The notes under the pieces were generated by a model, which saw only the letters and a list, made by a program, of their open reading frames with translations, was not told the origin of the DNA and made no database searches. A stretch of DNA of 64,000 nt from Mycobacteriales bacterium (GTDB lineage Bacteria > Actinomycetota > Actinomycetes > Mycobacteriales > Pseudonocardiaceae). The stretch covers positions 20,276-84,275 of the forward strand of contig JBBSQN010000002.1 of NCBI GenBank assembly GCA_038257875.1, written 5' to 3'. Of this stretch, positions 1,959-64,000 are shown piece by piece (within the stretch, counting starts at the first letter, position 1; each line of letters begins with the position of its first letter). A program made the position numbers and the translations under genes.

Positions 1959-2788
1959 TGGCGCTCCTGCTGCAGCCCACTAGCCGGGAGTCACTCGCCG
2001 AAGCCGGGACACGGCTTGACGCCTACGTCGACACCGCGTCGGGTAGCGACCTCGAGCGGCTCGGCGCCGATCTGTTCGCGGTGCTCCGGCTGGTGCTGGC
2101 CGAGACGACGCTGCGTCGCCATCTCGCCGATCCGGCCGTGCCCGCGGCGGCGCGTACGGCGCTCACCGACCGGCTGCTGGCCGACAAGGTCGGCCGACCG
2201 GCGCTGGACACGGTGTCCGATCTGGTCTCCGCCCGCTGGTCACGCTCGCTCGACCTGGTCGACGCGCTCGAGGCACTGGCGCGACGGGCCGCCCTGGGCG
2301 TGGCCGAGAAGGACGGCACGCTCGACGACGTCGAGGACGAGCTGTTCCGGTTCGGACGCATCCTCGACCGCGAACCGCAGCTCAACACCCTGCTCAGCGA
2401 CCGTGGCACCGCGGGCGACACCCGGGTCGAGCTGCTGCGCGACGTGCTCGGCGGCAAGGTCTCACCCGTCGCGGCGACCTTGCTCGAGCAGACCGTGCAC
2501 ACGCCCCGCGGGCCGAGCCTGGACCTGGCGGCCGAGGAGCTCTCAGAGCTGGCGGCGGCGCGCCGGGAGCGCTACGTCGCGCACGTCCGCACGGCGGTGC
2601 GGCTGACCGCCGAACAGGAGCAGCGGCTCGGTGACTCGCTCAGCCGGCTCTACGGGCGGTCGATCTCGCTGCAGGTCGAGCTCGACCCGGATCTGCTCGG
2701 CGGCCTCGTCGTCCGGGTGGGCGGTGAGCTCATCGACGGAAGCGTGGCGGGCAGGCTGGCCGCGGCGCGCAGGCAGTTGCCGTCCTGA
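1958..2788 (+). CDS. atpH: ATP synthase subunit delta (OSCP), long actinobacterial form
   Basis: In-frame ATG at 1958 inside the 1124..2788 ORF; the upstream part of that ORF is only a shadow frame over atpF/b'. The C-terminus [21 protein letters not shown] is typical of delta/OSCP. It precedes atpA. Confidence 0.85.
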
Positions 2789-2852
2789 GGGGCACCACCT
2801 CGCACGGACATCAGAAGGCTCGGACAACCACCAGCCCCGGACAGCAAAGGAC

Positions 2853-4514: not shown

Positions 4515-4537
4515 GCGGGTAGGGCGGGCGAAAGACC

Positions 4538-5548
4538 ATGGCGGCACAGATTCGGGTGCTGCGGCGGCGGATTCGGTCGACGCAGTCCATCAAGAAGATC
4601 ACCCGTGCGATGGAGCTCATCGCGACCTCCCGGATCGCCAAGGCGCGGGCCCGGGTGAACGAGGCGAAGCCCTACGCCGAGGAGATGACCCGGGTCCTCA
4701 CGGAGCTGGCGAACAACTCGGCGCTGGACCATCCGCTGCTCGTCGAGCGGGAGAACCCGCGCCGGGCCGCGGTGCTGGTCGTCACCAGCGACCGTGGCCA
4801 GTGCGGCGGCTACAACGCGGGAGTGCTCAGGGAGGCCGAACAGCTCCAGCAGCTGCTGCGCGAGCAGGGCAAGGAGCCGGTGCTGTATGTGATCGGCCGC
4901 AAAGGTGTGAGCTACTACCGGTTCCGCCGCCGCCCCGTTGTGGCGTCGTGGAGCGGGTTCTCCGAACAGCCGACCTACGCGAACGCGGCCGAGGCGGCCC
5001 ACACGCTCGTCGAGGCGTTCATGGTTGGTCAGGACGATGATCCGGACGGGTCGGCGGGCGCGGACGGTGTCGAGGGCGTCGACGAGCTGCACCTAGTCTA
5101 CACCCAGTTCCAGAACATGATCACGCAGACCCCGCAGGCCCGCCGGATGGCGCCGATGGAGGTCGAGTACGTGGGCGAGGAGGAGGACGGGAGCGGCACT
5201 GCCCTCTCCGAGACGCAGACCGGCGGCGCTACCGGCGTCGCGGCAGGTGACGATCGCGGTGACGGTCTGCGGGCGCTCTACGAGTTCGAGCCCGACGCCG
5301 ACACCCTGTTCGACGCCCTGCTGCCGAAGTACGTCAGTGCCCGGCTGTTCGCTGCGTTGCTCGAGTCGGCGGCGTCGGAGTCGGCCAACCGGCAGCGGGC
5401 GATGAAGGCGGCGACCGACAACGCCAACGACCTGATTCGTACCCTGACACTGGAGGCCAACCAGGCACGTCAGGCCCAGATTACCCAGGAGATCAGTGAG
5501 ATCGTCGGTGGCGCCGACGCTCTCGTGAGCGCAGGAAGCGAGGACTAA
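4538..5548 (+). CDS. atpG: ATP synthase subunit gamma
   Basis: N-terminus [28 protein letters not shown] and C-terminus [13 protein letters not shown]...[17 protein letters not shown] are canonical gamma helices. The protein has a long acidic insertion. Confidence 0.93.
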
Positions 5549-39712: not shown

Positions 39713-42277
39713 TCACCGACGAGGCGTCACGCGTGTACGACTCCGCGCCTGGACTCGGAGGGCGTCGCGGATCTGCGCGTAGATGTCGGCCTGGACTGTC
39801 GTGTGCATTTCGATCGACGCGATGAGTCCGTATCGGATCGCGGAGTTGGGCCAGCCGGTAGCGATGCGGCAGTCGACGTTGACGGCGACGGCGTCGCCGG
39901 ACACGAACGCAAGGGCGGAGTTGCCCTCCAGGATCTCGTGTTGCACCGTACCTCTCCCGACCGCATGGTAATCCGCCTCGCATCGTGTGACCCCGTAGGC
40001 GTTGGCGGGTGGCTCGATCGTCAGCTTGGCCATGCGGTGGCGTTGGGACCGCGGGTTGACCGGTGATATCCACGCCAGTGTGAGCGTCAACCGGCGCCAC
40101 TCCTTTGTCGCGTGCAGCGCAGGCGGCAGTGGCAGGCTGAACTGCTGGCGCTGCTTGTCCATGATGGAACCGGCACCGAGCATAACGGCGCGGGTTCGGG
40201 CTGCGGTAGCGACACGGTGGGGATCGACCCGTCCGTATCCCAGAGCCTTCGTCAGTCCACCCCTGTTGAGCCCGAGCACGTCGGTGAGGGGAGCCGCCAG
40301 GTCTCGCCAGCTGGCGCTGTGCACCAGGAGTGCCTTGGCCAGCACCGGATGGTACTGCGGGTCCGGAAATGGGAAGCTGCTGCCTTCGGCGGTGAGTTCG
40401 TCGAGTACGTCGAAGATTCCGTGGCTCATCCGAGTGGCGAGCGCCGTCGCGTGGCTCGTGCCGACACCGTAGGCCGTGGCGTCAGCGCCGAATGTCCCAG
40501 GGGAGGCGACGAGCAAGCCGGGTCCACGAGCGGTCTGGCGGGCTCGCTGAAGCTCAACGGCGCCACGCGCCCCGGGTAGCGGGCGCTGGAACAGTTGCCG
40601 GCCACCGGGCATCAGCACTTCCGGTTTCACCGACCGCTGGTGTCCGGTACCGGCGGCACTGTAGCTGGCGGGCATCCCGCGCCCGACCGCGTCGAGCACG
40701 GTGTCCGACGGAGGAATCTCCGTCGCGTCGTCGTGAACGGCTCCGACCGTCACTACGTTGACGGCCTCGGCGGGAGACAGGAGCCGTCGGTGCCGTGCTT
40801 CTCCGTGCAGGGTGTGGAGCATCTCCTTCCGCATCCCGTCGACATCGCTCACCGCCTCGACAGAGACCACCGGTGAGCCCGGGTGGTTACCGGCGCTCAC
40901 CAGGATCAACAGGTTGTAGTGATCGGCCAGCCAGTCGAGCAGTGTGGCGAGCGGGCTGACCCGACGCACGAACACCCGTGCCGGGTCACCGAGAGACAGG
41001 TTGACGATGCGCACGCTCGGAGCTACCGCCGGATGCGTGCCGTCGCCTTCGAACATGCGGTGGAAGCAGCGGTGCAGCAGGTCGACGAGCAAGCGGTCCC
41101 GGGCGAGGGTTTCGGTGTCGAAGTACGGGTGTGGCTCCATCACAGGTCGCACGTAAAGCCGGCTGGACAGCGGCCGACCGGGTGACGATAGGTCGCCGTG
41201 ACAGATAAGCGACGCCATGGCTGTGCCGTGGTGCTGCCGAGCGCTGGTGTACCGAGAGGCGTAGTCGTCCGGATCGTCGACGAGGAGCCGGCCGGTGAGT
41301 GTCGTGTGGTTGACCAGCGGCAGGCCGTCAAGCAGCGCTGTCCGCGGCCTGCTCTCCGCGGGCAGCACGGCGTCGGCCGGAGACAGATACTCTGCCGGTT
41401 CGAGACCAGGGAGTCCCATCGGCTGAGCGGGCGCCACGAACGCGATCGTGTCGGAAACGAGCAGCGCGATCGCGTCGGGACCTTCGGCCAGGACTGTGTC
41501 GATCTGGTTGGGCGGCAGGTCCACGAGCAGCGCGTGGTACCGGATGGCCGGGATCACTGCGGAGCTCACGACGGTGCCATGGGCGTCCGCCACCAGTTGC
41601 GTAACCCGGGTCTGCACGGCAGCGCGTTTGCGATCGTCTACTCGAAACCATAGCTCGATCTCCACACGCGACAAGCCCCGGCCGCCCACGACGGCGACCT
41701 CCTCACGCCAGGCCTCCAGCAGCCCGGTCTCGCGGACCCGGTCGGCTGGCCCCCACCGGCGCACTGCCCTGAGCTGCGCGAACGCTGTCCTGAGCGGGGC
41801 CAGTCCGGCAGGGAAGGGCTCGTCTGGGTCGGCTTTCCACCGTGTGAAGAGCCGAACCAGCTCAGCGACCGCGCGTGCGTTCGACATCACCGTGTACAGC
41901 GTTTCCGGGACGGGCTGGCTGGTGGGACCCTCGGCCTTGACGATTGCGAAGTCTGCGTCGGCCTCGGCCTCGTCCTCGGTGAGCTCGGCGAGGAACTCCA
42001 GCCCGTCGATCCCGGCCACCGACCGGTGAAACTCGGTGACCGTGCCTGCCAGATCGAAGACGACGACCAGTTCAGGGTCCTGCTCATCGGTGGTCGCCAT
42101 GGTCCTGGCGCGCTCGGCCGTCAGCGCCTCGCTCAGTGCCATGAACTGGGGCTTTAACCGCTCGCCCTGACGTTGCGCTGACGGTCCGCGCGGTGGGCGA
42201 GGGAACCGTGGAGGTCCAGGAGGAATCGGCTCGCTGATCGGTGGTCCGAACGCCAGCAGTGGACGTGCGTCGGTCAT
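39713..42277 (-). CDS. ietS: S8 subtilase-domain protein with a large uncharacterised N-terminal domain (IetS-like)
   Basis: 854 aa with no signal peptide. Subtilase triad contexts: Asp (TALLDGLP), His (HHGTAMASLICH), oxyanion Asn (LVSAGNHPG) and Ser (GVGTSHATALA). It is translationally coupled to the upstream AAA ATPase gene. Confidence 0.8.
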   Translation of the reverse strand: MTDARPLLAFGPPISEPIPPGPPRFPRPPRGPSAQRQGERLKPQFMALSEALTAERARTMATTDEQDPELVVVFDLAGTVTEFHRSVAGIDGLEFLAELTEDEAEADADFAIVKAEGPTSQPVPETLYTVMSNARAVAELVRLFTRWKADPDEPFPAGLAPLRTAFAQLRAVRRWGPADRVRETGLLEAWREEVAVVGGRGLSRVEIELWFRVDDRKRAAVQTRVTQLVADAHGTVVSSAVIPAIRYHALLVDLPPNQIDTVLAEGPDAIALLVSDTIAFVAPAQPMGLPGLEPAEYLSPADAVLPAESRPRTALLDGLPLVNHTTLTGRLLVDDPDDYASRYTSARQHHGTAMASLICHGDLSSPGRPLSSRLYVRPVMEPHPYFDTETLARDRLLVDLLHRCFHRMFEGDGTHPAVAPSVRIVNLSLGDPARVFVRRVSPLATLLDWLADHYNLLILVSAGNHPGSPVVSVEAVSDVDGMRKEMLHTLHGEARHRRLLSPAEAVNVVTVGAVHDDATEIPPSDTVLDAVGRGMPASYSAAGTGHQRSVKPEVLMPGGRQLFQRPLPGARGAVELQRARQTARGPGLLVASPGTFGADATAYGVGTSHATALATRMSHGIFDVLDELTAEGSSFPFPDPQYHPVLAKALLVHSASWRDLAAPLTDVLGLNRGGLTKALGYGRVDPHRVATAARTRAVMLGAGSIMDKQRQQFSLPLPPALHATKEWRRLTLTLAWISPVNPRSQRHRMAKLTIEPPANAYGVTRCEADYHAVGRGTVQHEILEGNSALAFVSGDAVAVNVDCRIATGWPNSAIRYGLIASIEMHTTVQADIYAQIRDALRVQARSRTRVTPRR

Positions 42278-43236
42278 GAGGTCGGTTGAGCCCTCCGTTG
42301 ACGGAGCCGGCTACACACGATCTCGTTGAGGTCAGCGCTGGGAAGGGCCAGGACGTAGCGTCGCCGGACGTCGTGCGCGAACTGCTCCAGCTCGGCATAG
42401 CTGGCTCCCGGCAGCCGGTCGGCCAGCGTGCGGGGCGCCAGACCCAGGCCGCCACCGAGGTGAGCGACCAACGACTGCAGGAACCGAGTGGCCTCGGCCC
42501 GAGACGGCGGGCTTAGCGTCAGGCGCAGCTGGAAGCGTCGCCACGCGGCACGGTCGAGCAGTTCGCCGTGATTGGTGGCGCACACGACGATGACGTGTGC
42601 AGGCAGTCGGTCGATCTGCAGCAGCAGCGTGGAGACCACGCGTTTGATCTCTCCTGTCTCGTGCGTGTCGGCCCGCTCCTTGGCAAGGGTGTCGAACTCG
42701 TCGAAGAACAGCACGCAGCGGCGGGTGCGGGCGAACTCGAAGACGTGGTCGAGCCGGCCAGCCGTCTCCCCGAGGAAACTTGACACCACACCCTCGTAGC
42801 GCACAACGTAGAGCGGTAGCAGGGTCTCCGCGGCGATGGCCTCGGCGAGGCTAGTTTTGCCGTTGCCCGGCGGGCCGTCGAGCAAGATGCGGTTGCGCGG
42901 TTCGATGCCATGACTGCGCAGCAGCTCAGCTCGATGGTGCTCCTCGATCACCTCCGCGGTCGCGCTGGCTACTTCCTCGCTGAGTTGCACGTCGACGAGC
43001 CGGCGGCGAGGGACGATCTCGTGCAGCAGGTCGGCCATCGGCCGGGCGCGGTCGTCGCGGGTCAGCAGCTCTGTGCTTCCCGCGGTGGTGATCAGCTCCG
43101 ACAGCCGGTCGGCGACGAGATGGTGCTGGTTGCTGCGCTCCTCGGCAATGATCGCTTCCACCAGCACCCGAAAGCGCGCGACGTCCCCGCGCCGCTGCGC
43201 CTCGACGAGGTCGATGACCAGGTCGGACCGCGCCAT
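42274..43236 (-). CDS. ietA: AAA-family ATPase (IetA-like)
   Basis: Start ATG 43236 preceded by GGAGGGG. Walker A GPPGNGKT, Walker B VLFFDEFD, sensor-1 VVCATN and an RRF arginine region. The stop overlaps the start of the S8 gene (42274-42277). The ORF-track start at 43425 reads through repeat R3 and is unlikely. Confidence 0.8.
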   Translation of the reverse strand: MARSDLVIDLVEAQRRGDVARFRVLVEAIIAEERSNQHHLVADRLSELITTAGSTELLTRDDRARPMADLLHEIVPRRRLVDVQLSEEVASATAEVIEEHHRAELLRSHGIEPRNRILLDGPPGNGKTSLAEAIAAETLLPLYVVRYEGVVSSFLGETAGRLDHVFEFARTRRCVLFFDEFDTLAKERADTHETGEIKRVVSTLLLQIDRLPAHVIVVCATNHGELLDRAAWRRFQLRLTLSPPSRAEATRFLQSLVAHLGGGLGLAPRTLADRLPGASYAELEQFAHDVRRRYVLALPSADLNEIVCSRLRQRRAQPTS

Positions 43237-43386
43237 CACCCCTCCATCCCGCCGTAGCTCTTTGGCAACTCTACGGCGCACCCCTGTCAATGACCTGGTG
43301 CCTCGCGGCATTTGATGCTGCCGCCCACCCGTGGAAGATCGGTTCGAGCGGTAGACTGCGATGCTGAACCGGTTGAGCTGGTCGCC

Positions 43387-43418
43387 GTCAGCTCCTGAAC
43401 CGCGACGCTCCCGGATAC
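43387..43418. repeat. Repeat R3 (copy of the left half of R2)
   Basis: GTCAGCTCCTGAACCGCGACGCTCCCGGATAC. The about 70 nt to its left look like a degraded copy of the 3' end of gene X (about 65-70% identity by eye, with indels). Confidence 0.75.
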
Positions 43419-43521
43419 TGTTCACGCAGGTCGCGGACCTTCAGTGGAGCAACGGATCACTCAACGGCTCTGTGAGCTGCCGTAGGGGTCGTGTACACCA
43501 CGTGGAAGGAGCTGGGACGAC

Positions 43522-53832: not shown

Positions 53833-54443
53833 CAGCCGAACGCTCCTTCCAGGGTGACGCGCAGGGTGTCGAGCACAGCCGCCGCGTCGACTGCGAGCTC
53901 GTCGCCGCGATCGATGGCGAAGGTAAGGAACGTCAGTTCCAGCGCGTCGGAACAACTGGGCGGGAAAACAGTGTAGATCACGTTCTCCTGCAGCGTCTTG
54001 CGCCATGAGTACCAGCGGGAGTCCGGACGGGCGATGATCTCTCGCACCATCAGGGCCGGACCCGCGGGCACCTCGATCTCGTCGACATGGCGACCGAAGA
54101 CCTGATGCCCGGTGCGCCGGTCCGGGTCGATCAACCCACGGTAGGACGCCCGGTCCAGTGGGCGGCCGTCGTCCGGCATCACCCAGTCGACCGTCATCAG
54201 CCCGGCCACCTCGGGTATCGCACGGTCGGGAACCCACACCGCGAGTAGCAGGTGTGGATCGGCGATCAGCTCGGGATGGATGCGCTCCAGCCGGGCGGCC
54301 AGTGCGTCCTGCGGCTCCTGGCCGTCACACAGCAGCATCGCAGTGTCCTGGGCCCATCCCGGATCGCCCTCGCTCACCGGGATCAACCCCCAGGTGTCGG
54401 GAGCAGACAGCTCGTAGGAGCCCAGGGGGCGCAGGTTGCTCAC
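53832..54443 (-). CDS. Hypothetical cytoplasmic protein, 'Q'-like (candidate immunity/accessory protein)
   Basis: 203 aa. The GTG start overlaps the stop of the effector gene (GTGA at 54440-54443). Confidence 0.6.
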   Translation of the reverse strand: MSNLRPLGSYELSAPDTWGLIPVSEGDPGWAQDTAMLLCDGQEPQDALAARLERIHPELIADPHLLLAVWVPDRAIPEVAGLMTVDWVMPDDGRPLDRASYRGLIDPDRRTGHQVFGRHVDEIEVPAGPALMVREIIARPDSRWYSWRKTLQENVIYTVFPPSCSDALELTFLTFAIDRGDELAVDAAAVLDTLRVTLEGAFG

Positions 54444-55915
54444 CGTGGGGCTCCTGCACCAGCCATATCGGTCTGGCGGTCGGCAGGGGGAAGGCTGAGC
54501 GCATCGGCTGGCGAGGGTGAAGGCACCAGGCCAGCGCCTGTTGTCGTCGTGACAAGAGTCGCGGACGCGGTCGATCCGTAGAACAGATGGCTCTGCCGAA
54601 CAGCATCCGACAAGTGGGGGGCGACCTCGTCGCTGGCCCGGACGACATCGTGAACCCTGCTGATGTCCTGCACGCCGCTGGCCGCGTCATGCTGTCCGAG
54701 GGCCTGCATCGTGCTGGGCCGCCCACCGTGTCGGGCCTGGCTCAGGGCCTCGCCCCAGTCTGCATTGCGCAGAGCGCGGACGTTGCTGCCGAACTCGCCG
54801 GGTAGAGCTCGCAGGTCACGCCCGATATTGCCAGTCGACGGGAGGAGACCGTGTGCCCGAGACTGCTGGGCGGCGGTACGGGCCGCTCTCCTGGTCATCG
54901 GGTTCGCCGTACCCAGCATCGACCGGATAGCCGTCATCGAGTTGCCCGAGGACGGTAGCCCGGCGGCGGCCCGGGCCGCCGGGGACTGGGCGGCCAGCCG
55001 TCCAGCGGCCAGCCGGGAGGCACCGCGCGCCCCTTGTACCGACACCTTGAGTCCGGCCATCGCGGCCCGGCCGATGCCGAAGCTCAGCACCCCGATGGCC
55101 GACCACGCGACGGCCGACCACTCGGCCTGGCCGGTGGCGGCCAAGGCGACGTTGCCCAGCAACGACACCAGCGAGGCGACCAGCGCTATCGTGCCGAGGA
55201 CGGCGGCCAGCGCTTGACCGATGATCGGGATCCAGCCGACGAGAAGCGCCAGCACACCGGCGACCACCGCCACCACGTCCGCGATCTTGACAATCCACTT
55301 GACGACCTTGGCGCCCCAGTTGTCCCACCAGCTGTCATTGAGGTCCCCGGAGTCCTTGACCTCGTGGATCAGGCTCGACGCGCGTTGTGCGGCGGTGTCT
55401 CGGGCGTCGGTTGCCTGATCCAGGCGTCGTTGAGCCGCTGCGCGGGCGTCGGTAGCAGCGTCGGCAGCAGCGAGTGCCCGCCGGTGGGAGCCCTGGTCGG
55501 TGGTGGTGTCGGTACCGTCGGGCGCGGCGTCTATTCGCCCCTGGGCTGCGCTGGCGAGCCGGTTGGCGGTGAGCTCGTCGGCCTCGGCTTGTTTGGCCTG
55601 CACCAGCGCGGCGGCCGACTCCGACTGCGCGTCGCGGAGCTCTGGTGCGTAGCCGATGAGCGCCTGCCCGACACCGTCGTAGCGTTCGTGCGCTCGGGTG
55701 ATGTCGTCGGCAACCTCACGTGCGGTGGCGCGGAACGCCTCCACCGCGTCACTCTGCATGTCCTGGTGGTCGGCGATGCGGCGCAGCTTCGCCGCGGCGT
55801 CATTGATCGCCTGTGCGACTCGCCGGTAGTGCCTGCCCAGCTGCTCGACCCGATCCGGGTCTCCCGGTACCGGGTCACTACCCGCCAGCGGCGACCAGTC
55901 GACCGGGCGGCTCAC
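54440..55915 (-). CDS. Putative type VII secretion substrate: N-terminal helical (LXG/WXG-like) domain, central multi-TM block, polar C-terminal domain
   Basis: 491 aa. The N-terminus W.PLAGSDPVPGDPDRVEQLGRHYRRVAQAI is followed by about 190 aa of helical A/D/Q/R-rich sequence, then 4-5 TM helices (VKWIVKIADVVAVVAGVLALLVGWIPIIGQALAAVLGTIALVASLVSLLGNVALAA...). It sits directly after WXG100-type genes and opposite EccC. Confidence 0.6.
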   Translation of the reverse strand: MSRPVDWSPLAGSDPVPGDPDRVEQLGRHYRRVAQAINDAAAKLRRIADHQDMQSDAVEAFRATAREVADDITRAHERYDGVGQALIGYAPELRDAQSESAAALVQAKQAEADELTANRLASAAQGRIDAAPDGTDTTTDQGSHRRALAAADAATDARAAAQRRLDQATDARDTAAQRASSLIHEVKDSGDLNDSWWDNWGAKVVKWIVKIADVVAVVAGVLALLVGWIPIIGQALAAVLGTIALVASLVSLLGNVALAATGQAEWSAVAWSAIGVLSFGIGRAAMAGLKVSVQGARGASRLAAGRLAAQSPAARAAAGLPSSGNSMTAIRSMLGTANPMTRRAARTAAQQSRAHGLLPSTGNIGRDLRALPGEFGSNVRALRNADWGEALSQARHGGRPSTMQALGQHDAASGVQDISRVHDVVRASDEVAPHLSDAVRQSHLFYGSTASATLVTTTTGAGLVPSPSPADALSLPPADRQTDMAGAGAPR

Positions 55916-56202
55916 TGCTGCCCCCGCAACGCGGCGGCGAACTCCTCGTCCAGGCTCTCGAAGGCCTCCGCGACACCGGTTGCCGTGTCGGCGAGCTTCG
56001 CGATGTTCTCCAGCATCTTCGTCCGCCGGTCGTCCCAGTTGTGGGCGAAGGAACGTATCGCGCCGGCAAGACCGGAGTGTCCGAGCGCGTCGGCCGCGTC
56101 GTCACTGTTCGTGTTCGCGTGTTCGAACTCGGTCGCGACGACGCGCAGCTGCATACCGGCCTCCCGCAGCAACAGCGTGTCGACCCGCAGCTGTGCAACC
56201 AT
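55912..56202 (-). CDS. Small helical protein, probable secretion partner/chaperone of the downstream effector
   Basis: 96 aa, predicted all-helical with a WXG100-like size. The stop overlaps the effector start (4 nt). Confidence 0.55.
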   Translation of the reverse strand: MVAQLRVDTLLLREAGMQLRVVATEFEHANTNSDDAADALGHSGLAGAIRSFAHNWDDRRTKMLENIAKLADTATGVAEAFESLDEEFAAALRGQQ

Positions 56203-56346
56203 AATGGGTCCCCTATGGCGTCAACTGATTACTGACCTGGGCGTGGACAGCTTTCCTCGCCCTCATGCAAACGAGCAGCGACCCGCCGATCCGCGAAAGG
56301 AAATGAACCCGCGGTCGCTGATCGTTCGATGACGTCCTGTCGACCG

Positions 56347-56643
56347 TTACCGGTTGAGCTGCTGCGAGAGCTGCTGGTCTGTCTGCTGGAAGGCGTCCGC
56401 GGCGGCGTTGAGGTACTGGTTCATGCCCTCCAGGCCCTCGATCGTCTTGCGGGCGCCCGTATTGAACTCGTCGTAGGACGTCTGGAACTGCTTGCTCGAC
56501 ACGTCGGTGACATACCCCCCGGAGACGAGCTGGTCCACCTGGCTCTTGAGCTGCGTCAGGCGAGACTCGATGTCGTTCTGACCGGCCTGCAGCTGCCTCC
56601 CGGCGTTCCGCATCTCCTCATAGGTCACGTTCACGTTCGGCAT
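56347..56643 (-). CDS. WXG100-family (EsxA/YukE-like) protein with a degenerate WXG turn
   Basis: 98 aa from ATG 56643, with RBS GGAGAGGAAA. Colinear with YukE/EsxA-type proteins (V.VTYEEMRNAG..L......I...L..L...V..L...GY....S..F...YDEF...........L......L..AA.AF..TDQQL). The turn reads SGGY instead of WxG. Confidence 0.8.
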   Translation of the reverse strand: MPNVNVTYEEMRNAGRQLQAGQNDIESRLTQLKSQVDQLVSGGYVTDVSSKQFQTSYDEFNTGARKTIEGLEGMNQYLNAAADAFQQTDQQLSQQLNR

Positions 56644-56852
56644 GGTGGCGTTTCCTCTCCCCGGGACAACATGGAACGGTTGGCCTACCGTGAATGCTGT
56701 CCGATCCAGATCCGCAGCAGACCGCCGCAACGTAGCATACCCGGCTGTTTCACCTCGTCGCCGACCTGCGGGGTCATCCGGCGCCGGTGCTAACCTGGGT
56801 GGGCGGCGTGAGCACCCCGCATGTTACGGGCCGTGGCAGGAAGGGGGAGCGG

Positions 56853-59800
56853 GTGCGCCTGACGTGCACGGTCGTCGACCCGAAGGTCGAGAGTCGTACC
56901 GATGTCGCCATCGACGCCGAGCCGGAGGCGACGGCACGCCAGATCAGCACCGCGATCACCGGCCTCGTTCGTCCGGGCGTGCGCGCAGCGGTCCTCTACG
57001 TCGACGGCGCCGCGCTGGTTCCGGAACTGCAGTTGTCGGGCTCGCCGTTGCGTGATGGCGCGATCGTCAGCCTCGGCAGTTCGGCCGGCTGCCCGCGTCC
57101 GGAGCCGGACGGCCTGGTTGAGGTGCGGGTGGTCAGCGGCCCCGACTCGGGCGGGGTGTTCCGGCTGGATCATGGGGTCGTCCGGATCGGCGGTGGTCCG
57201 GACGACGCGATCGCGGTCGACGATCCCAGCGTGCCGCCGGGTGCGATCGATCTCGAGGTCAGGGCCGACAAGACCTGCATGGTGGTGCCGAAGGGTGCGG
57301 TACAGACCTGGCTGGACGGCGAGCAGCTCGCCGCGTCCGCCCCGTGGTCGGTCGGGGGTCAGCTGGCCGTCGGGTGGACCGTCTTCGAGCTGTCCGTTGT
57401 GTCAGCACCGGACGCGGCGGTGCAGCCGTCGGAGGACGGCGCGGGTCTGGACTACAACCGGCCGCCCCGGCTCCGACCGCCGCCCCGCAAGACCAAGTTC
57501 CGGATACCGGCGGCCCCCACCCAGGGCGAGCGCCGACCGTTCCCGATCCTGATGGCGATCGCCCCGCTGGTGCTGGCCGTCGGGATGGTGTTCCTCCTCA
57601 AGAACCTGCTGTTTCTCGGCTTTGCGCTGCTCAGCCCCGTCATGGTGATCGGCAACTACGTCACCGACCGCCGCCACGGCCGCAAGTCCTACCGGCAACG
57701 GCTGATCGAGTACCGGGAGCGCAAGGCCGCGATCGAGGCGGAGGCCCGGGAGGCACTGCACGTCGAGGAGGTGGCTCGCCGCGTCGACGCACCGGATCCG
57801 GCCACCGCGCTGCTCACCGCGGTCGGCCCGCGCAGCCGGCTGTGGGAGCGCCGCCGCGACGACCCCGACTACCTGCTGATGCGGGTCGGCACCGGCGATC
57901 TGCCCTCGGAGGTCGTGCTCGACGACCCGACCCGGGAGGAGCACCGGCGGGCGGTGACCTGGACCGCGCTGGACACGCCGGTCACCGTGCCGCTGCGAGA
58001 GCGCGGTGTGCTCGGCATCGCCGGCCCGGCCGAGACGCCGCGGGCACTGGCGCGCTGGGTCCTCGCCCAGGCCGCGGTCCTGCACAGCCCCCATGACCTG
58101 CAGCTCTACGTGCTCACCGACACTCCGGGGCGGCGTCGGTGGGAATGGGTCCGGTGGCTGCCGCACGCTCGCCCGTTCGACGTCCTGAACGCCACCGCGC
58201 TGGTCGGCACCGACGCCGACACCGTGGGTCGCCGCGTCGCGGAGCTGACCGCGATCGTGACGGCCCGGCGCAAGGCGATGCAGGAGTCCTCGGCGGTCAC
58301 GTTCGTCGAGCCGGACGTCGTGGTCGTCCTGGACGGTGCTCGGCGGCTGCGGCTGCTGCCCGGGGTGATCCAGATCCTGAAGGAAGGCCCCGCGGTCGGC
58401 GTGTACGCGGTGTGCCTGGACGCCGACGAGCGGCTGCTCCCCGCGGAGTGCCAGGCCACCGTGGTGGTGGATCCGGCCGGTGGCCTGCGGGTACGCCAGG
58501 CCGGCGAGGAGCAGGTGGAGAACGTGCGCCCCGAGTGCGTCACCCCGGCCTGGTGCGAGCGGCTGGCCCGCGGGCTGGCCCCGCTGCGCGATGTCAGCGG
58601 TGACGAGGAGGAGGCCGCGCTGCCCGGCGCGTGCCGGCTGCTGGACCTGCTGGCGCTGGAGCCGCCGTCCCCCGACGCGATCGCCGCCCGCTGGACGGTC
58701 GGCGGGCGCAGCACGGAGGCACTGATCGGGATCTCGCTCGACGGCGCGTACGCGATCGACCTGAAGCGCGACGGTCCGCACGGGCTGGTCGCCGGCACTA
58801 CCGGGGCCGGGAAGTCCGAGCTGTTGCAGACCGTGGTGGCCTCGCTCGCGGTGGCCAACCGGCCGGACGCGATGGTGTTCGTCCTGGTCGACTACAAGGG
58901 CGGCAGCGCGTTCAAGGACTGCGCGGACCTGCCGCACACCGCCGGCATGGTCACCGACCTGGACGCGCACCTGGTCGAGCGGGCGCTGGAGTCGATCGCG
59001 GCCGAGCTGCGCCGCCGGGAGCGGCTGCTCGCCGACGCCGGTGCTCCCGATATCGAGGCGTACCTGCTCGTCGCCGGCGCCAACCCGGAACTGCCGCCGC
59101 TGCCACGGCTGCTGATCGTGATCGACGAGTTCGCCTCGCTGATCCGCGAGCTGCCGGACTTCGTCACCGGCCTGGTCGACCTGGCCCGGCGCGGGCGGTC
59201 CCTGGGCATCCACCTGATTTTGGCCACCCAGCGGCCCAGCGGCGTGGTCTCCCCGGAGATCCGGGCGAACACCGACCTGCGCATCGCGCTGCGGGTCACC
59301 GACGCCGCCGAGTCCGCCGACGTGATCGACGCCCCGGACGCGGGCCGGATCGCCAAGTCCACCCCGGGCCGAGCCTACGTCCGGTGCGGCGCCAGCTCGC
59401 TGGTCCCGTTCCAGGCCGGTCGGGTCGGCGGCCGCCGACCCGGTACCGGGCCGGTCGAGCTGCCCGAGCCGTGGGTCGCCACCCTGGACCCGGCGAGGCT
59501 CGGCCAGCCACCACCCGTACCACCCCGGCGTACCACGGCCGACGAGGAGATCACCGACCTGGCCGTCCTGGTCGAGGCGGTCGCCAAGGCCACCCAGGCC
59601 CTCGGCATCCCGTCCCAGCCCAGCCCCTGGTTACCGGCGCTGCCCGACAGCCTCACCCTCGACGATCTGCCCGAGCCGGAGTCCACGTCCGGCGGGTTGG
59701 CGCCGGTGCCGTACGCGCTCGACGACCTGCCCGCGCAGCAGCAGCAGTCCGCCGCGTGCCTGGACTTCGCCGCCCTCGGCCACCTGTTCGCGGTCGGCGG

Positions 59801-61217
59801 CCCGCGCACCGGGCGCTCGCAGATCCTGCGGACGATCGCCGGCTCGGTCGGCCGGCTCCACTCGGCCGCGGACGTGCACCTCTACGGGATCGACTGCGGC
59901 AACGGCGGGTTGCTGCCGGTCGCCGAGCTGCCGCACTGCGGCGCGATCGTGCGCAACACCCAGACCGAGCGGGCGGTCCGGCTGATCGGTCGGCTCACCG
60001 TCGAGATGCAGCGCCGCGTCGAGATGCTCAGTGAGGGCGGCTTCGCCGACATCGGCGAGCAGCGGGCCGCGTCGCCGCCCGAGCGGCGGCTGCCGCACCT
60101 GGTGGTGTTGATCGACCGGTGGGAGTCGTTCACGATCTCTCTCGGCGAGATCGACAACGGCCGGCTCACCGACGAGATCCAGCGCATCCTGCGGGAGGGC
60201 GCCAGCGTCGGCCTGCACCTGGTCATCACCGGAGACCGTTCGCTGCTGTCCGGACGGATGTCCACCCTGACCGACACCAAGATGGTGTTCCGGCTGCCCG
60301 ACCGCAGCGACTTCTCGTTGATCGGCATCAACCCCCGCAAGGTGGCCGACACGATGGCGCCAGGCCGGGCGCTGCGGGCCGAGTCCGGGGTGGAGACCCA
60401 GGTCGCGCTGCTCGCCCCGGACCCGACCGGCCAGGGTCAGGCCGCGGCACTGGCCCGGATCGCGGCCCGGGCGCGGGAGCGCGACGCCGACCTGCCGATC
60501 GGGTCGCGACCGTTCCGGGTGGACGTGCTGCCGGCCCGGCTGGGCTTCGAGCAGGCCTGGGCGCTGCGGGAGGCCACTACCCCGACCAGCCCGATGTGGG
60601 CGCTGGTCGGGGTGGGCGGCGACACGCTGTGCGCATACGGGCCAGACCTGGCCACCGGCATGCCGGCCTTTGTGGTGGCCGGGCCGCCGGGTTCCGGCCG
60701 CAGCACCGTGCTGCTGACCATGGCCCGGTCGCTGCTCGGTGCCGGGACCGGGGTCGTCGCGGTCACTCCCCGACAGTCACCGCTGCGCCAGCTGGCAGAC
60801 CAGCGCGGCGCCGCCGTGCTGACCGGCTCCGGCCTGGACCCCGCCGATCTGGCCGCGGCACTGGCCGCCGTGCCCGAGCCCAACGTTGTGATCATCGACG
60901 ACGCCGAGCTGTTGCGGAACTGCCAGGCCGATGACGAGCTGCTTGCGCTGTTGCGCGCCGGCGCCGGTTCCGGTCGGGCGCTGGTGATCGCCGGTGACGC
61001 CGAGGGCGTCTGCTCCGGTTTCTCCGGCTGGCAGGTGGAGATGAAGAAGGCCCGGCGCGGGCTGCTGCTCGCGCCGCAGTCGATCACCGAGGGTGACCTG
61101 ATCGGCGTCCGGGTGTCGCGCAGCGTCCTGGGCCAGCCAGCCCAACCCGGACGCGGCCTGCTCCACCTCGGCGACGGTGAGCTCCGCACCGTCCAAGTCC
61201 CCCACGCGGTCGACTGA
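56853..61217 (+). CDS. eccC: Type VII secretion FtsK/SpoIIIE-family ATPase (EccC/EssC-like) with N-terminal ubiquitin-like and FHA domains
   Basis: GTG 56853 preceded by AAGGGGGAG. An N-terminal beta-grasp-like segment of about 90 aa (..LRDGAIVSLG) is followed by an FHA-like segment (VVSGPDSGGVFRLDHGVVRIGGGPDDAIAVDDPSV), two TM helices, and three P-loop domains (GTTGAGKSELL; GGPRTGRSQIL; GPPGSGRSTVL). Confidence 0.92.
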   Translation: MRLTCTVVDPKVESRTDVAIDAEPEATARQISTAITGLVRPGVRAAVLYVDGAALVPELQLSGSPLRDGAIVSLGSSAGCPRPEPDGLVEVRVVSGPDSGGVFRLDHGVVRIGGGPDDAIAVDDPSVPPGAIDLEVRADKTCMVVPKGAVQTWLDGEQLAASAPWSVGGQLAVGWTVFELSVVSAPDAAVQPSEDGAGLDYNRPPRLRPPPRKTKFRIPAAPTQGERRPFPILMAIAPLVLAVGMVFLLKNLLFLGFALLSPVMVIGNYVTDRRHGRKSYRQRLIEYRERKAAIEAEAREALHVEEVARRVDAPDPATALLTAVGPRSRLWERRRDDPDYLLMRVGTGDLPSEVVLDDPTREEHRRAVTWTALDTPVTVPLRERGVLGIAGPAETPRALARWVLAQAAVLHSPHDLQLYVLTDTPGRRRWEWVRWLPHARPFDVLNATALVGTDADTVGRRVAELTAIVTARRKAMQESSAVTFVEPDVVVVLDGARRLRLLPGVIQILKEGPAVGVYAVCLDADERLLPAECQATVVVDPAGGLRVRQAGEEQVENVRPECVTPAWCERLARGLAPLRDVSGDEEEAALPGACRLLDLLALEPPSPDAIAARWTVGGRSTEALIGISLDGAYAIDLKRDGPHGLVAGTTGAGKSELLQTVVASLAVANRPDAMVFVLVDYKGGSAFKDCADLPHTAGMVTDLDAHLVERALESIAAELRRRERLLADAGAPDIEAYLLVAGANPELPPLPRLLIVIDEFASLIRELPDFVTGLVDLARRGRSLGIHLILATQRPSGVVSPEIRANTDLRIALRVTDAAESADVIDAPDAGRIAKSTPGRAYVRCGASSLVPFQAGRVGGRRPGTGPVELPEPWVATLDPARLGQPPPVPPRRTTADEEITDLAVLVEAVAKATQALGIPSQPSPWLPALPDSLTLDDLPEPESTSGGLAPVPYALDDLPAQQQQSAACLDFAALGHLFAVGGPRTGRSQILRTIAGSVGRLHSAADVHLYGIDCGNGGLLPVAELPHCGAIVRNTQTERAVRLIGRLTVEMQRRVEMLSEGGFADIGEQRAASPPERRLPHLVVLIDRWESFTISLGEIDNGRLTDEIQRILREGASVGLHLVITGDRSLLSGRMSTLTDTKMVFRLPDRSDFSLIGINPRKVADTMAPGRALRAESGVETQVALLAPDPTGQGQAAALARIAARARERDADLPIGSRPFRVDVLPARLGFEQAWALREATTPTSPMWALVGVGGDTLCAYGPDLATGMPAFVVAGPPGSGRSTVLLTMARSLLGAGTGVVAVTPRQSPLRQLADQRGAAVLTGSGLDPADLAAALAAVPEPNVVIIDDAELLRNCQADDELLALLRAGAGSGRALVIAGDAEGVCSGFSGWQVEMKKARRGLLLAPQSITEGDLIGVRVSRSVLGQPAQPGRGLLHLGDGELRTVQVPHAVD

Positions 61218-61241: not shown

Positions 61242-61928
61242 CTACCCGACAGGCACGCGCCCAGGTATCAGCTCGGACACCTCAGACGGTATCTCGGTTG
61301 TCTCAGGTGGTATCTCGGTTGTTGTCTCAGGCGGTACCTCGGATGTCTCAGATGGCGCTGAAGTGGATGTCGTGGTGGTGTCGGGTGTGGTGGACGGTGA
61401 CGGTGACGGCGTCGTGGTCGGGTCGGGTGTCGGTGTCCCCGTCGGCTGATTGCCCTGGTTTTCCGGGTTGCCCCCCGGACCGTTGGGCTCCCCGCCTGAC
61501 CTACCCGGTGCACCGCCCCCGCCACCTCCCGGCGGCACGGCGCCGCCACCCGGTGGGAAGCCCAGCGGAGGTGGAGGTAGAGGTATGAACGGTTCATTGC
61601 TCTGTGGGTTGCCCGGTGTGACCGTCGCCGGGGGCGTGACCTCACTCGCAGGCTGAGAGAGAAGCTTCGGTATGCCGTATACCCCGCCCACGATCAGCGC
61701 GCCGGCTGTGACCACGGAGACGATCGGCCAGAGGAAACGGTGCATCGGATGGCGTGACTCGTCCGCGGGGTCGGCACCGACGGCCAGCGACCGATCCGGT
61801 CTGTTGCGCCCCCGCCCGCCAGTCACCAGGTCGCCGTAACGCCCCTCGTCCGCGTCCGGTTCCTGGCCGCCCCGAACCTCCCACCAGCGACGCCCTGAAC
61901 CCTCCGGCTCGGTGTTCGCCCCTGACAT
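61242..61928 (-). CDS. Single-pass membrane protein with a Pro/Thr/Gly-rich extracytoplasmic tail
   Basis: ATG 61928 (MSGANTEPE), TM helix FLWPIVSVVTAGALIVGGVYGI, then low-complexity P/G/T sequence ending in ETT(T)EIPP repeats. It is convergent with eccC. Confidence 0.55.
   Translation of the reverse strand: MSGANTEPEGSGRRWWEVRGGQEPDADEGRYGDLVTGGRGRNRPDRSLAVGADPADESRHPMHRFLWPIVSVVTAGALIVGGVYGIPKLLSQPASEVTPPATVTPGNPQSNEPFIPLPPPPLGFPPGGGAVPPGGGGGGAPGRSGGEPNGPGGNPENQGNQPTGTPTPDPTTTPSPSPSTTPDTTTTSTSAPSETSEVPPETTTEIPPETTEIPSEVSELIPGRVPVG
61281..61350. repeat. Three tandem 21/24/21-nt repeats inside the Pro/Thr-rich gene
   Basis: CTCAGACGGTATCTCGGTTGT / CTCAGGTGGTATCTCGGTTGTTGT / CTCAGGCGGTACCTCGGATGT. 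These are in-frame and encode the ETSEVPP/ETTTEIPP/ETTEIPS units on the minus strand. Confidence 0.7.
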
Positions 61929-61988
61929 TGTTTCCCTCCGAGAGCGTATGCCACCCACGTGCTCGCGTGGGCAGTGTTCCGCGAGCGG

Positions 61989-62564
61989 CTACGCTGTCAA
62001 GGACTGGGCCAACTCGTCAACCGCTGTGATCCAGGTGCTGGCGGCTACCAGGTCGACGAAGGCCGTGGACACGGTGACCACGACGTCCTCGTGATCGCTC
62101 CCGGAGACGAGCCAACCGTACGCGACGTGCTCGCGGATCTCTTCGACGCCGGGGGAGAGCAGCTCCCGGTAGCGCTGCACCAGCCGCACCGCAGGCCCAA
62201 CCGGTGTCTCGATGACCGAGCGGTCGCGCGGAACCTCCAGCATCTCCGTGGGTATGCACAGCTCGTCGCCCAGCGCGTCCAGTGTGAGCCCGGGGGCGGC
62301 GTCGAAGGTCCGCAACCCGACGACGGTCACGACGGGCTCGTCAGCGGCCGGGTACAGCAGCAGCGCCGCCTGCAGCGCGGTCGTGTCGATGCTGTCGACG
62401 ATCCGCGCGACGCTCGCGATGATCGCCTCGGTGCGCGCCGGATCGTCGCCGAGCTGACGCTCCGCCCACCGTCGGCGCACCGTGGTGGCCGCCCAGGCCT
62501 GCGGCGTCGCATTCGGGTCGGCCTCGACCCAGCGGCGGTCGTAGTCGAGCCGTACGTCGGTCAT
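61989..62564 (-). CDS. Hypothetical protein, 'Q' family copy
   Basis: ATG 62564 overlaps the stop of the upstream P gene (ATGA at 62561-62564). 191 aa. Confidence 0.6.
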   Translation of the reverse strand: MTDVRLDYDRRWVEADPNATPQAWAATTVRRRWAERQLGDDPARTEAIIASVARIVDSIDTTALQAALLLYPAADEPVVTVVGLRTFDAAPGLTLDALGDELCIPTEMLEVPRDRSVIETPVGPAVRLVQRYRELLSPGVEEIREHVAYGWLVSGSDHEDVVVTVSTAFVDLVAASTWITAVDELAQSLTA

Positions 62565-63181
62565 GTCTGCTTCCAACGCAGCGACCCCGCGATCGCGTCG
62601 AACAGCGTGACCATCGCGTCGGCGATCGGGTCGATCGGCGTGCTGAACGACAGCAGCAGCATCTCCGCCTTGTTCGGCACCGGCACGTACACCTGCAGGC
62701 GGGTGACCGGAAGCTCCCCGGTCGAGAGGCCGTCCACCTCGTCCACCGACTCCCGCCGCCGTACCCGGGCAGCCGGCGCCCCGGCCACCTCCAGCACACC
62801 CACCTCATCGTCGGGTTGATCGCCCATCATCGCCGCCAGCTCCGCTGCCGGCAGCTCCGTTCCCACACCGGTCGGGACCACGGTGACCAGGCACGACGCC
62901 GCCACCGGCAGCCCGCGCATCAGATCGACGCTCAGGTACATGTCGGTCGCGCCGTTGCGCACCGCCCGCTCGGCCATCCGGGTCAGCTCGACCTCCAGCT
63001 CCCGGCGCAGCGTGGCCACCCGGTCCCGCGGCAACGACGCCAACCGGTTGTCGAGCAGCGCCGTGACCGACTGCCCGCGGCGCTCGTCCAGCGGGACGTG
63101 CCACCACCCCGGCGGCAGCATCAGCGACCATCCGGCCGGCCAGCTATTCTCGACGACTCCGTCGGTGGTTGGACTGCTCAT
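62561..63181 (-). CDS. Hypothetical protein, 'P' family copy 3
   Basis: 206 aa from ATG 63181. Clear paralog of 51449..52078 (LMLPPGWWHVPL; ASLPRDRVATLRRELEVEL; VTLFDAIAGSLRWKQT). Confidence 0.62.
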   Translation of the reverse strand: MSSPTTDGVVENSWPAGWSLMLPPGWWHVPLDERRGQSVTALLDNRLASLPRDRVATLRRELEVELTRMAERAVRNGATDMYLSVDLMRGLPVAASCLVTVVPTGVGTELPAAELAAMMGDQPDDEVGVLEVAGAPAARVRRRESVDEVDGLSTGELPVTRLQVYVPVPNKAEMLLLSFSTPIDPIADAMVTLFDAIAGSLRWKQT

Positions 63182-63209
63182 CAGTTGCTCACCTTCGACG
63201 GTACGGTCC

Positions 63210-63416
63210 TCACTCTGTGGGACCTGTTCCCCGGCTCGATCCCGCCTCCCGGGTGAAGCTCGGCTTAATGGCCTCGAACACGAGCGTCGTGCCCGGATCG
63301 TCGGCTGTCTCGGCCCCGGCGTCCAGACCCATCTGCTGCGCGATCCGCCTGAGATGTCGGGCCAGATCACTGGAGACAGCGGCAGGGTCAGCTACATGCT
63401 TCTCGTTATCCACCAC
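63210..63416 (-). CDS. Possible small protein (about 68 aa)
   Basis: GTG 63416/63413. The high-GC part of ORF 63210..63617 (..HVADPAAVSSDLARHLRRIAQQMGLDAG..) is coding-like. The upstream part of that ORF crosses the low-GC segment and is probably not coding. Weak call. Confidence 0.25.
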   Translation of the reverse strand: MVDNEKHVADPAAVSSDLARHLRRIAQQMGLDAGAETADDPGTTLVFEAIKPSFTREAGSSRGTGPTE

Positions 63417-63570
63417 CGCTCCCACCTGACTGTCGAGCCGCAGCAGAGCGGTCCGTAATGATCCAGGGGCCTGCCACCTGTGGCAACCCGAACCGTTGAT
63501 ATGTCTGCTTGTTGTAACCAAGGGTCGCTCCATTGCTGGTGGTCTTATCTGAAGTTGGGTTGGACTGAAC

Positions 63571-63810
63571 TCAGGGAGAATCTGCGTCATAGTCCAAGAA
63601 GAACTCTTCCTTTTCATTTTTCATGGTGCCGCCTAGCGATTTAAGGAATGCCGCTAAAGTGTCTACTGGTATCGGGAAAGAATCAACCATTGGATCCGTA
63701 GCTGCAATGTTTAGTGCTGATCGAAACCACTCTCTGACGAGATCGTTGACTTGTATCTCAGTCAGTAGCTTTTCGCCGTCCCGCTCGTAACCGCGGATAA
63801 CCCAACTCAT
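63571..63810 (-). CDS. Putative immunity protein for the upstream rRNase toxin (79 aa, low-GC gene)
   Basis: ATG 63810 overlaps the toxin stop (ATGA, 63807-63810). The protein is acidic and of small size. GC content is conspicuously lower than the rest of the window (about 45% by eye). Confidence 0.65.
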   Translation of the reverse strand: MSWVIRGYERDGEKLLTEIQVNDLVREWFRSALNIAATDPMVDSFPIPVDTLAAFLKSLGGTMKNEKEEFFLDYDADSP

Positions 63811-64000
63811 GGATCGACCCTACGTCTCGGATTCGCAGGCTTTGTTTGTTCGCCTGTATTGGGATCGAACTCCCCGACGTGACGACCTTTCTTATTGTAA
63901 ACTTCTACTGCGCCATGTTGGCGGTCCCACTCATATATCTTTCCCTCGGGATCTTTCCAGCGCGGGCGCAGGCCGCCGCCTCCCTGGACGGGTGTTTTAG
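63807..64000 (-). CDS. C-terminal end of a polymorphic toxin with a colicin E3-like (16S rRNase, 'cytotoxic') domain; the gene continues beyond the window
   Basis: Not in the ORF track because the frame is open to the window edge. The minus-strand translation is ..KTPVQGGGGLRPRWKDPEGKIYEWDRQHGAVEVYNKKGRHVGEFDPNTGEQTKPANPRRRVDP*. It is colinear with the colicin E3 C-terminus as I remember it (GGGKRKRWTGDKGRKIYEWDSQHGELEGYRASDGQHLGSFDPKTGNQLKGPDPKR). Confidence 0.8.
   Translation of the reverse strand, partial: KTPVQGGGGLRPRWKDPEGKIYEWDRQHGAVEVYNKKGRHVGEFDPNTGEQTKPANPRRRVDP

Follow-up and report, generated by a model that had tools for sequence, protein, structure and literature searches.

Toxin tip and small acidic gene at the window edge

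We analysed a stretch of 64,000 nucleotides (nt) from a Mycobacteriales bacterium of the family Pseudonocardiaceae (assembly GCA_038257875.1, contig JBBSQN010000002.1, positions 20,276 to 84,275; the whole stretch is referred to here as the window). One end of the window carries the 3' end of a predicted Rhs-type polymorphic toxin gene with a colicin E3-type ribonuclease tip, followed on the same strand by a small gene that probably encodes its immunity protein, and the neighbouring genes include an ATPase of the kind found in type VII secretion systems (T7SSs). A preliminary description, made from the letters of the window alone, had proposed such a toxin–immunity pair, and its individual claims are taken up below where our results bear on them. 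The features at the edge are as follows.

63805..64000, minus strand: 3' end of the rhs toxin gene, comprising its last 63 codons (63998-63808) and the stop codon TGA (63807-63805); the remaining 1384 codons lie beyond the window edge.
63807..63810, minus strand: ATGA overlap in which the toxin TGA shares bases with the ATG of the immunity gene, an arrangement typical of translational coupling.
63571..63810, minus strand: immunity gene, encoding an acidic protein of 79 amino acids (aa; isoelectric point, pI, 4.3) that is a member of Pfam family DUF7683.

Translation of minus-strand frame 3 from 63998 down to 63808 gave KTPVQGGGGLRPRWKDPEGKIYEWDRQHGAVEVYNKKGRHVGEFDPNTGEQTKPANPRRRVDP followed by the TGA at 63807-63805, and the other two frames of the same minus-strand stretch were rich in stop codons. 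When searched against Pfam, this 63-residue fragment matched PF09000 (Cytotoxic) with an E-value of 1.8e-30 and a score of 105.5 bits (the cut-off being 22), aligning to positions 19-79 of the 80 in the profile, whilst the full 1447-aa protein, recovered as set out below, matched the same profile over positions 1-79 of 80 (E=4.7e-36, 123.4 bits, aa 1367-1445). The top matches of the fragment in the PDB were colicin E3 chains (1e44_B, E=9.1e-16), and on alignment to 1e44_B and 2b5u_A the residues D510, H513, E517, H526 and R545 of E3 were identical in the tip, where they lie in EWD, QH, VE, RH and RR, respectively. Overall identity between the tip and colicin E3 was ∼50–55 %, and the tip that would be released is predicted to be basic (pI 9.8). 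Judged from these matches, the tip is a genuine domain of the colicin E3 type.

The preliminary description fared well at this point. The colicin E3 resemblance it had noticed lies far above chance by the profile, structure and residue matches just given; the search with the Cytotoxic hidden Markov model (HMM) that it had proposed as a check yielded a score well over the cut-off; and the ATGA overlap at 63807-63810, together with the 79-aa acidic open reading frame (ORF), was borne out by both sequence and translation. The toxin peptide it had given was correct as far as it went and stopped four residues short, such that ...PANPRR should read ...PANPRRRVDP before the stop.

The complete toxin and its operon

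When exact copies of the 79-aa protein were looked up, they proved to be present on 14 contigs, and ten of these were examined (ENA, JGI, NCBI and Logan assemblies). These ten metagenome contigs, derived from different samples, were 99.6–100 % identical to the window across 0.9–10.4 kb, and the toxin protein was identical on all ten, with no amino-acid difference and no stop codon. The full ORF (L001:5661-10004) specifies a protein of 1447 aa (P0128), to the C-terminus of which the window fragment is 100 % identical. The full toxin that the preliminary description had expected beyond the edge was thus recovered by way of identical contigs, and its body has an N-terminal delivery domain of T7SS type and an Rhs cage. 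Its regions are listed here by residue.

aa 17-180: T7SS_signal domain (PF21725), 48.3–52.5 bits against a cut-off of 27.
About aa 205-260: hydrophobic block, the single long one in the protein.
aa 313-384: DUF6531 plug, 82.2 bits.
aa 672-709 (best stretch): RHS/YD repeat shell, with PF05593 RHS_repeat at 288 bits in 8 stretches and TIGR01643 YD_repeat in 10 stretches.
aa 1282-1356: Rhs-associated core (TIGR03696), 75.2 bits.
aa 1330 and 1352: DPLGL motifs, the second within WIDPLGL (1352-1356), directly before the tip.
aa 1357-1447: tip, ∼91 aa and basic, with the Cytotoxic domain complete at 1367-1445.

On the matching contigs the operon consists of three genes, encoding a small helical partner of 106 aa, the 1447-aa toxin and the 79-aa immunity protein. 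The ORF of the 106-aa partner overlaps the toxin start and gave weak matches to EspC and WXG100 (E ∼0.04); a YxxxD motif is common to the partner ORFs of three loci, namely the window-type operon, the orthologous locus L012 and that of Saccharopolyspora hirsuta. Upstream of the operon (L001:1-5300, beyond window position 64000) we observed an HTH (helix-turn-helix) gene, the selenocysteine machinery genes selA and selB, a STAS-domain gene and a WhiB-family regulator.

A low-GC cassette that is exchanged as a unit

The closest full-length relatives of the toxin were found in metagenome-assembled genomes of Pseudonocardiaceae. Relatives that are 70–74 % identical over 94 % of the query are without the E3 domain, and have instead tips belonging to PF15526, to PF15657 or to no Pfam family. 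When the C-terminal 260 residues of 17 proteins were aligned, conservation extended to W[IL]DP[LF]GL, after which the sequences could not be aligned save for the three with E3 tips. As the body orthologues diverge completely just after DPLGL, the tip is evidently swappable.

Base composition changes at the same place. The GC content at third codon positions (GC3) drops from 0.77 in the Rhs body to 0.49 both for the tip and for the immunity gene, then rises to 0.91 for the gene that follows, and a matching GC3 dip was seen in L012, L015 (S. hirsuta), L017 (Burkholderia) and L018 (Synechococcus). Total GC is 47.1 % for the immunity gene and 55.6 % for the tip, compared with 69.9 % for the whole window, and no other 500-nt stretch in the 64 kb is as low in GC as the one here, which is about 6 standard deviations under the mean. 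The preliminary description had therefore recognized a low-GC module in the right place, its figure of roughly 45 % being too low for 63460-63960, for which we obtained 49.9 %. Its view of the pair as a swappable toxin–immunity cassette is upheld by the low GC and by an upstream boundary that coincides with the DPxGL recombination/cleavage motif at which orthologues change tips. The breakpoint between orthologues and the drop in GC3 show that the tip and the immunity gene form a cassette, exchanged horizontally, that is inserted after DPxGL. The other side of the cassette is marked by one further feature.

63400..63570, no strand: non-coding tail 3' of the immunity gene, with a GC of 0.56 that rises from 47 % to genome level; downstream cassette edge.

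Within this tail we detected no orphan tip, no second immunity gene and no terminator-like site, and a promoter/terminator scan of 63000-64000 was uninformative. A tblastn search of the window with 120 Rhs C-termini revealed neither orphan tips nor additional Rhs fragments, and an Rfam scan of the window gave zero matches.

DUF7683 as a predicted ImmE3-like immunity family

The 79-aa protein matched PF24731 (DUF7683) with an E-value of 3.9e-9 (37.1 bits, cut-off 27), and the same Pfam search gave no match to PF03513 (Cloacin_immun, the ImmE3 family) or to Imm45. Even among its relatives, PF03513 was touched by only 1 of 12 at E ≤ 10 and by 4 of 107 at E ≤ 0.01. An exhaustive profile search brought the DUF7683 family to 274 clusters at E ≤ 0.001, and a deep alignment of 107 sequences was assembled from these clusters. 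Comparison of this alignment with ImmE3 by hhalign gave a probability of 90.2 % (E=1.5e-6, 72 columns), and in a PDB-wide profile search with the same alignment ImmE3 was aligned over its full length (E=0.0015). For the Synechococcus member of the family, ImmE3 was likewise the best PDB match, again over the full length (E=0.0024). An AlphaFold2 (AF2) model of the 79-aa protein built on the deep alignment had a mean predicted local distance difference test (pLDDT) score of 89.9 and the order beta-beta-alpha-beta-alpha-beta, and its top Foldseek match was ImmE3 (3eip_A), with template modelling (TM) scores of 0.62/0.59 and a probability of 1.00, the next match having a TM score of 0.23. An alignment of 7 close homologues had given a model with a pLDDT of 68.5, a best Foldseek E-value of 0.77 and an hhalign probability of 1.3 % against ImmE3; it was superseded by the 107-sequence set.

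Two further candidates were set aside. Matches of the DUF7683 profile to PDB chains of 'Multidrug resistance protein 1' (E ∼1e-4 to 8e-4) were short and partial, fell in multi-domain chains over a 'DPM/L-F' stretch and were deemed chance, and a match of the Burkholderia immunity protein to calmodulin (E ∼0.05) was dismissed. A scan of GTDB species genomes with the immunity alignment returned just two distant, irrelevant stretches (one in a spirochaete, one in a Bacteroidales metagenome-assembled genome), and we found no mention of DUF7683 or PF21725 in the literature searched.

The genomic context of the family points in the same direction as its profile. DUF7683 ORFs on the same strand and directly after E3 tips were collected from L012, L015, L016, L017 and L018. 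The orthologous locus L012 has a toxin tip and DUF7683 gene paired as in the window; in S. hirsuta (L015) the toxin is followed by an 82-aa protein with a weak DUF7683 match (E=0.005); and in Burkholderia (L017) an Rhs-E3 gene and an 84-aa DUF7683 gene share 4 nt, an overlap of toxin and immunity gene that is also present in L012 and L015. In Synechococcus PCC 6312 (L018), a stand-alone E3 tip lies downstream of a giant Rhs gene and precedes a 79-aa DUF7683 gene. Finally, in Streptomyces sp. NPDC007988 a DUF7683-like ORF (L016:3492-3818, plus strand; E=2.6e-14 with the family HMM) comes directly after an E3-type gene. This last ORF is absent from the public annotation, which instead places a 215-aa gene over it, on the opposite strand.

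Two metagenomic cases depart from this simple order. In P0033, a 191-aa protein from a JGI metagenome, an E3 tip and DUF7683 stand in one continuous frame, which is either a natural toxin–immunity fusion through stop loss or an artefact of assembly or gene calling. On the metagenomic contig L011, positions 900-4750 hold an island of Imm32, DUF7660, DUF7683 and DUF7674 with no toxin called nearby, which looks like a polyimmunity locus that includes an orphan E3-type immunity gene.

From profile comparison, predicted fold and placement after E3 tips in three phyla, all of which agree with the immunity function proposed for the 79-aa protein in the preliminary description, we regard DUF7683 as a divergent, ImmE3-like family and the 79-aa gene as the putative cognate immunity gene. 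More broadly, DUF7683 very probably constitutes a widespread chromosomal branch of the ImmE3 fold, in which case the E3 ribonuclease and its ImmE3-like partner would be one ancient cassette that has moved between Rhs toxins, in at least three phyla, and colicin plasmids. As DUF7683 appears to be ImmE3-like, a DUF7683 gene can flag a nearby E3-type toxin, including among uncalled ORFs such as that of L016.

Type VII secretion genes in the window

The 10 kb beside the cassette contain the following genes.

56787..61217, plus strand: EssC/EccC-like T7SS ATPase of 1476 aa, in which an FHA-like N-terminus precedes FtsK/SpoIIIE and other P-loop NTPase regions; the immunity gene is 2.4 kb away.
56347..56643, minus strand: gene for a WXG100 (EsxA-like) small T7SS substrate (PF06013, E=3.1e-18).
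55912..56202, minus strand: EspC-like small helical protein of 96 aa (PF10824, E=0.0038, sub-threshold), the stop of which overlaps the start of the next gene, encoding a T7SS_signal protein.
54440..55915, minus strand: 491-aa paralogue of the N-terminal delivery module of the toxin, with T7SS_signal (PF21725, E=5.8e-10) and a hydrophobic block.
61242..63181, minus strand: three genes between the ATPase and the cassette, encoding proteins of 206 aa (62561-63181), 191 aa (61989-62564) and 238 aa (61242-61958).

The ATPase matched Pfam FtsK_SpoIIIE in two stretches (E=9.5e-53) and the FHA-like Yop-YscD_cpl at aa 114-203 (38.3 bits against 33.2). Among NCBIfam models it scored 556 bits with EssC, 421 with EccCa and 299 with EccCb, that is, higher with the firmicute EssC model than with the actinobacterial EccCa and EccCb models. 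An ATPase of EssC-like build is thus present inside a Pseudonocardiaceae-like genome.

Further away on the other side of the ATPase, the 491-aa protein is 40 % identical to the N-terminus of the Rhs toxin over 300 aa (E=3e-42), and the overlap between its gene and the 96-aa ORF mirrors that between the 106-aa partner and the Rhs toxin downstream of it. Its C-terminal ∼200 aa are rich in alanine and serine, with no family match and no recognizable toxin domain; it may represent a second substrate or else partner the delivery module structurally. The second-lowest GC of the window (0.61–0.63) was observed at 56000-56350, a segment that takes in part of the EspC-like gene at 55912-56202 as well as the spacer ahead of the WXG100 gene.

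The 206-, 191- and 238-aa proteins between the ATPase and the cassette gave zero Pfam or NCBIfam matches; the 238-aa protein has a hydrophobic stretch and a tail rich in proline and threonine. Genes corresponding in size and order come after the immunity gene in L012. The idea that the 206-aa and 191-aa neighbours are paralogues of each other was rejected on comparison. Elsewhere in the window (39713-43425, minus strand), an 854-aa subtilase (Peptidase_S8) and an adjoining 383-aa AAA ATPase failed the GC3 >0.82 filter for likely genes, unlike most of their neighbours.

Proposed mode of action and alternative explanations

Taken together, we read the window edge as the 3'-terminal part of a polymorphic toxin operon of Rhs type with an E3 tip and an ImmE3-like immunity protein, the product of which would be exported by a T7SS, and put the probability of this at about 0.8. 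In such a scheme the helical N-terminus and the small YxxxD partner, to go by domain and locus, would target the toxin to the neighbouring EssC/EccC-type ATPase. The tip would be enclosed in the Rhs shell and set free inside it through a cut after DPLGL, made by the core's aspartyl autoprotease, a step suggested by what is known of the family and represented in our data by the motif. Following delivery to a neighbouring cell, the tip would cleave the 16S rRNA at the decoding centre (A1493/G1494, Escherichia coli numbering) and translation would stop, a specificity that we infer because the tip is 50–55 % identical to E3 and retains all catalytic residues. In the producer, the acidic ImmE3-like protein, made by translational coupling, would bind the basic tip and block its access to the ribosome; homology and linkage are observed, and binding is what they would predict.

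Export through the neighbouring T7SS is likely on account of the T7SS_signal domain, the partner gene, the neighbourhood and the published precedent. By this reasoning, Pseudonocardiaceae may use an FHA-bearing, EssC-like T7SS to export a membrane-associated Rhs cage of ∼157 kDa that would deliver a ribosome-cutting enzyme to neighbouring monoderm actinobacteria. The joint proposition, that DUF7683 is the chromosomal ImmE3 branch and also that a T7SS-exported Rhs cage delivers an E3 enzyme, is a tentative one to which we give slightly less than even odds.

Several observations weigh against the overall interpretation. The window itself holds 63 codons of the toxin, the remainder coming from near-identical contigs outside it; the 106-aa partner reaches just E ∼0.04 with EspC and WXG100; and the immunity protein of the window is itself without a Cloacin_immun match, such that its link to ImmE3 needs the family profile. 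The ATPase falls under all NCBIfam equivalog cut-offs, and Pfam or NCBIfam searches of ∼35 ORFs in 17597-63400 recognized no membrane core of a T7SS (EccB/EccD/EccE/MycP or EssA/EssB/EsaA); the T7SS locus looks minimal, or else its core looks to be unannotated or elsewhere in the genome. Moreover, we know of no system for which the passage of a folded ∼157-kDa cage with hydrophobic helices through a T7SS is understood, and of no experimental demonstration, for any T7SS, of a ribosome-cutting enzyme delivered by an Rhs cage.

In the foremost alternative, the toxin–immunity pair is as described and export does not proceed via the adjacent ATPase, occurring instead by lysis, by membrane insertion of the hydrophobic helices or through a T7SS elsewhere, with the adjacency reflecting coincidence at an integration hotspot. 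The lack of a recognized membrane core in the window and the sub-cut-off ATPase scores would fit this, as would the S. hirsuta operon, which is surrounded by housekeeping genes, the nearest 6 kb being free of T7SS genes. Nevertheless, the toxin N-terminus matches T7SS_signal over threshold, a small helical YxxxD partner overlaps the toxin start in three loci, L012 has a WXG100 gene immediately upstream, and in the window a second pair of partner and T7SS_signal genes adjoins the WXG100 gene and the ATPase. NCBI also names relatives of the toxin 'putative T7SS-secreted protein', and the equivalent locus logic has been validated experimentally for the EatA toxin of ESX-4 (PMC13444075). On balance, we hold export independent of the adjacent ATPase to be unlikely.

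Considerably less probable still is that the tip is active on a different RNA, or is attenuated, and has an effect other than decoding-centre cleavage. Zhang et al. noted that not all family members have H58 (H513), and put forward a revised active site that includes H526 (PMC3482391); in our tip alignment H513 was not among the invariant columns, and identity to E3 is only ∼50–55 %. Set against this, all five of the implicated E3 residues are identical in the present tip, the match spans the whole domain, and the partner with the ImmE3 fold has been kept, which argues that the toxin surface and the mode of inhibition are unchanged. Lastly, that the 79-aa ORF specifies a chaperone or an adaptor, or rides with the tip as an ORF without function, is hardly credible in spite of the Pfam label of DUF7683 (function unknown) and its absence from the literature searched, given a family of 274 clusters with members directly downstream of E3 tips in three phyla and one in the L011 polyimmunity island, an acidic charge that complements the basic tip, and profile and fold homology to the experimentally characterized ImmE3.

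If the favoured reading of a T7SS-exported Rhs toxin holds, killing in the E3 style, by a single cut in the decoding centre of the ribosome, would be in use by soil-type actinobacteria on a type VII/Rhs platform, with an antidote that moves with the toxin as a swappable low-GC cassette. The pair is compact, at 91 aa plus 79 aa. A Pfam family of unknown function would gain one, as DUF7683 is predicted to be an ImmE3-like immunity protein, and the cultured relative S. hirsuta is a possible host in which to ask whether an actinobacterial T7SS exports an Rhs cage. How T7SSs handle a membrane-associated Rhs cage is a question general to the whole toxin class, and the general picture of polymorphic toxins is unchanged by these findings.

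Comparison with known systems

The tip and its partner most resemble colicin E3/ImmE3, encoded on plasmid ColE3 and represented also by cloacin DF13 and pyocin S6. Both toxins belong to the catalytic family PF09000 with the five aligned E3 residues identical, and in both a small acidic immunity gene lies immediately downstream, with the ImmE3 fold here being predicted. The target of colicin E3 is the 16S rRNA decoding centre, which by the same knowledge is the target expected of the tip. In contrast to colicin E3, the toxin of the window is without colicin receptor-binding and translocation domains, a plasmid or a lysis gene, and has a helical N-terminus of the T7SS type along with an Rhs cage; its gene is chromosomal, in a high-GC Gram-positive bacterium. 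The immunity protein, for its part, is so diverged from ImmE3 that it sits in DUF7683 rather than in Cloacin_immun.

The delivery portion is comparable to that of prePAAR-class Rhs effectors, T6SS (type VI secretion system) proteins with transmembrane helices at the N-terminus, in which an Rhs cage likewise surrounds a C-terminal toxin released at DPxGL and hydrophobic helices lie between delivery domain and cage. Those effectors differ in being delivered by PAAR through the T6SS of Gram-negative bacteria, whereas the present toxin has T7SS_signal and belongs to an actinobacterium.

The nearest named relative is P0178 of S. hirsuta (1404 aa; 'colicin E3/pyocin S6 family cytotoxin' at NCBI), which has the same six Pfam domains and is 52 % identical over 99 % of the query. 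Its operon is also alike, in that the toxin gene shares bases at its start with a 113-aa partner ORF and at its stop with an 82-aa gene, and differs in its genomic neighbourhood, devoid of T7SS genes over the 6 kb noted above, and in the weakness of the match between the 82-aa partner and DUF7683.

Among T7SS-linked toxins, Listeria monocytogenes LrhA, a predicted T7SSb Rhs toxin, shares the helical N-terminus, DUF6531, Rhs repeats and C-terminal toxin, and its locus likewise has small helical partner genes upstream and adjoins an FHA-bearing EssC (PMC10327511). It differs in being from a firmicute, in having three partner genes, a toxin of unknown fold and an N-terminus without a known domain family, and in that no hydrophobic block was reported (PMC10327511). 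The mycobacterial EatA/TapA1-A2/EatI system is actinobacterial and has the same gene order of small helical Tap partner(s), toxin with a helical N-terminus and immunity gene (PMC13444075). For this system Benedict et al. (2026; PMC13444075) showed experimentally that ESX-4, a T7SSa, exports an antibacterial toxin in interbacterial killing, and reported such loci to be broadly distributed across Actinomycetota. The payload of EatA is, however, a cell-wall arabinanase that acts outside the cell, its immunity protein is a lipoprotein and it has no Rhs cage; the main text of that paper does not mention Rhs or colicin payloads (PMC13444075).

The class to which the window toxin belongs was in fact catalogued some time ago. 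In the table of Zhang, de Souza, Anantharaman, Iyer and Aravind (2012; PMC3482391), Tox-ColE3 is listed in Actinobacteria with T7SS trafficking domains (WXG, LXG) and RHS repeats, and this actinobacterial T7SS/RHS class is that of the present toxin. The immunity families given there for Tox-ColE3 are Imm-Cloacin, confined to plasmids and gammaproteobacteria, and Imm45, whilst the partner in the window belongs to DUF7683, a family absent from that paper (PMC3482391). The predicted ribosome-cleaving tip on an apparent actinobacterial T7SS substrate, which the preliminary description had singled out as worth confirming, is as such real, and the novelty implied for it is weaker in light of both this catalogue (PMC3482391) and the S. 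hirsuta orthologue already named by NCBI. The new element is a modest one: DUF7683 is here placed with the ImmE3 fold and linked to E3-type tips in different phyla.

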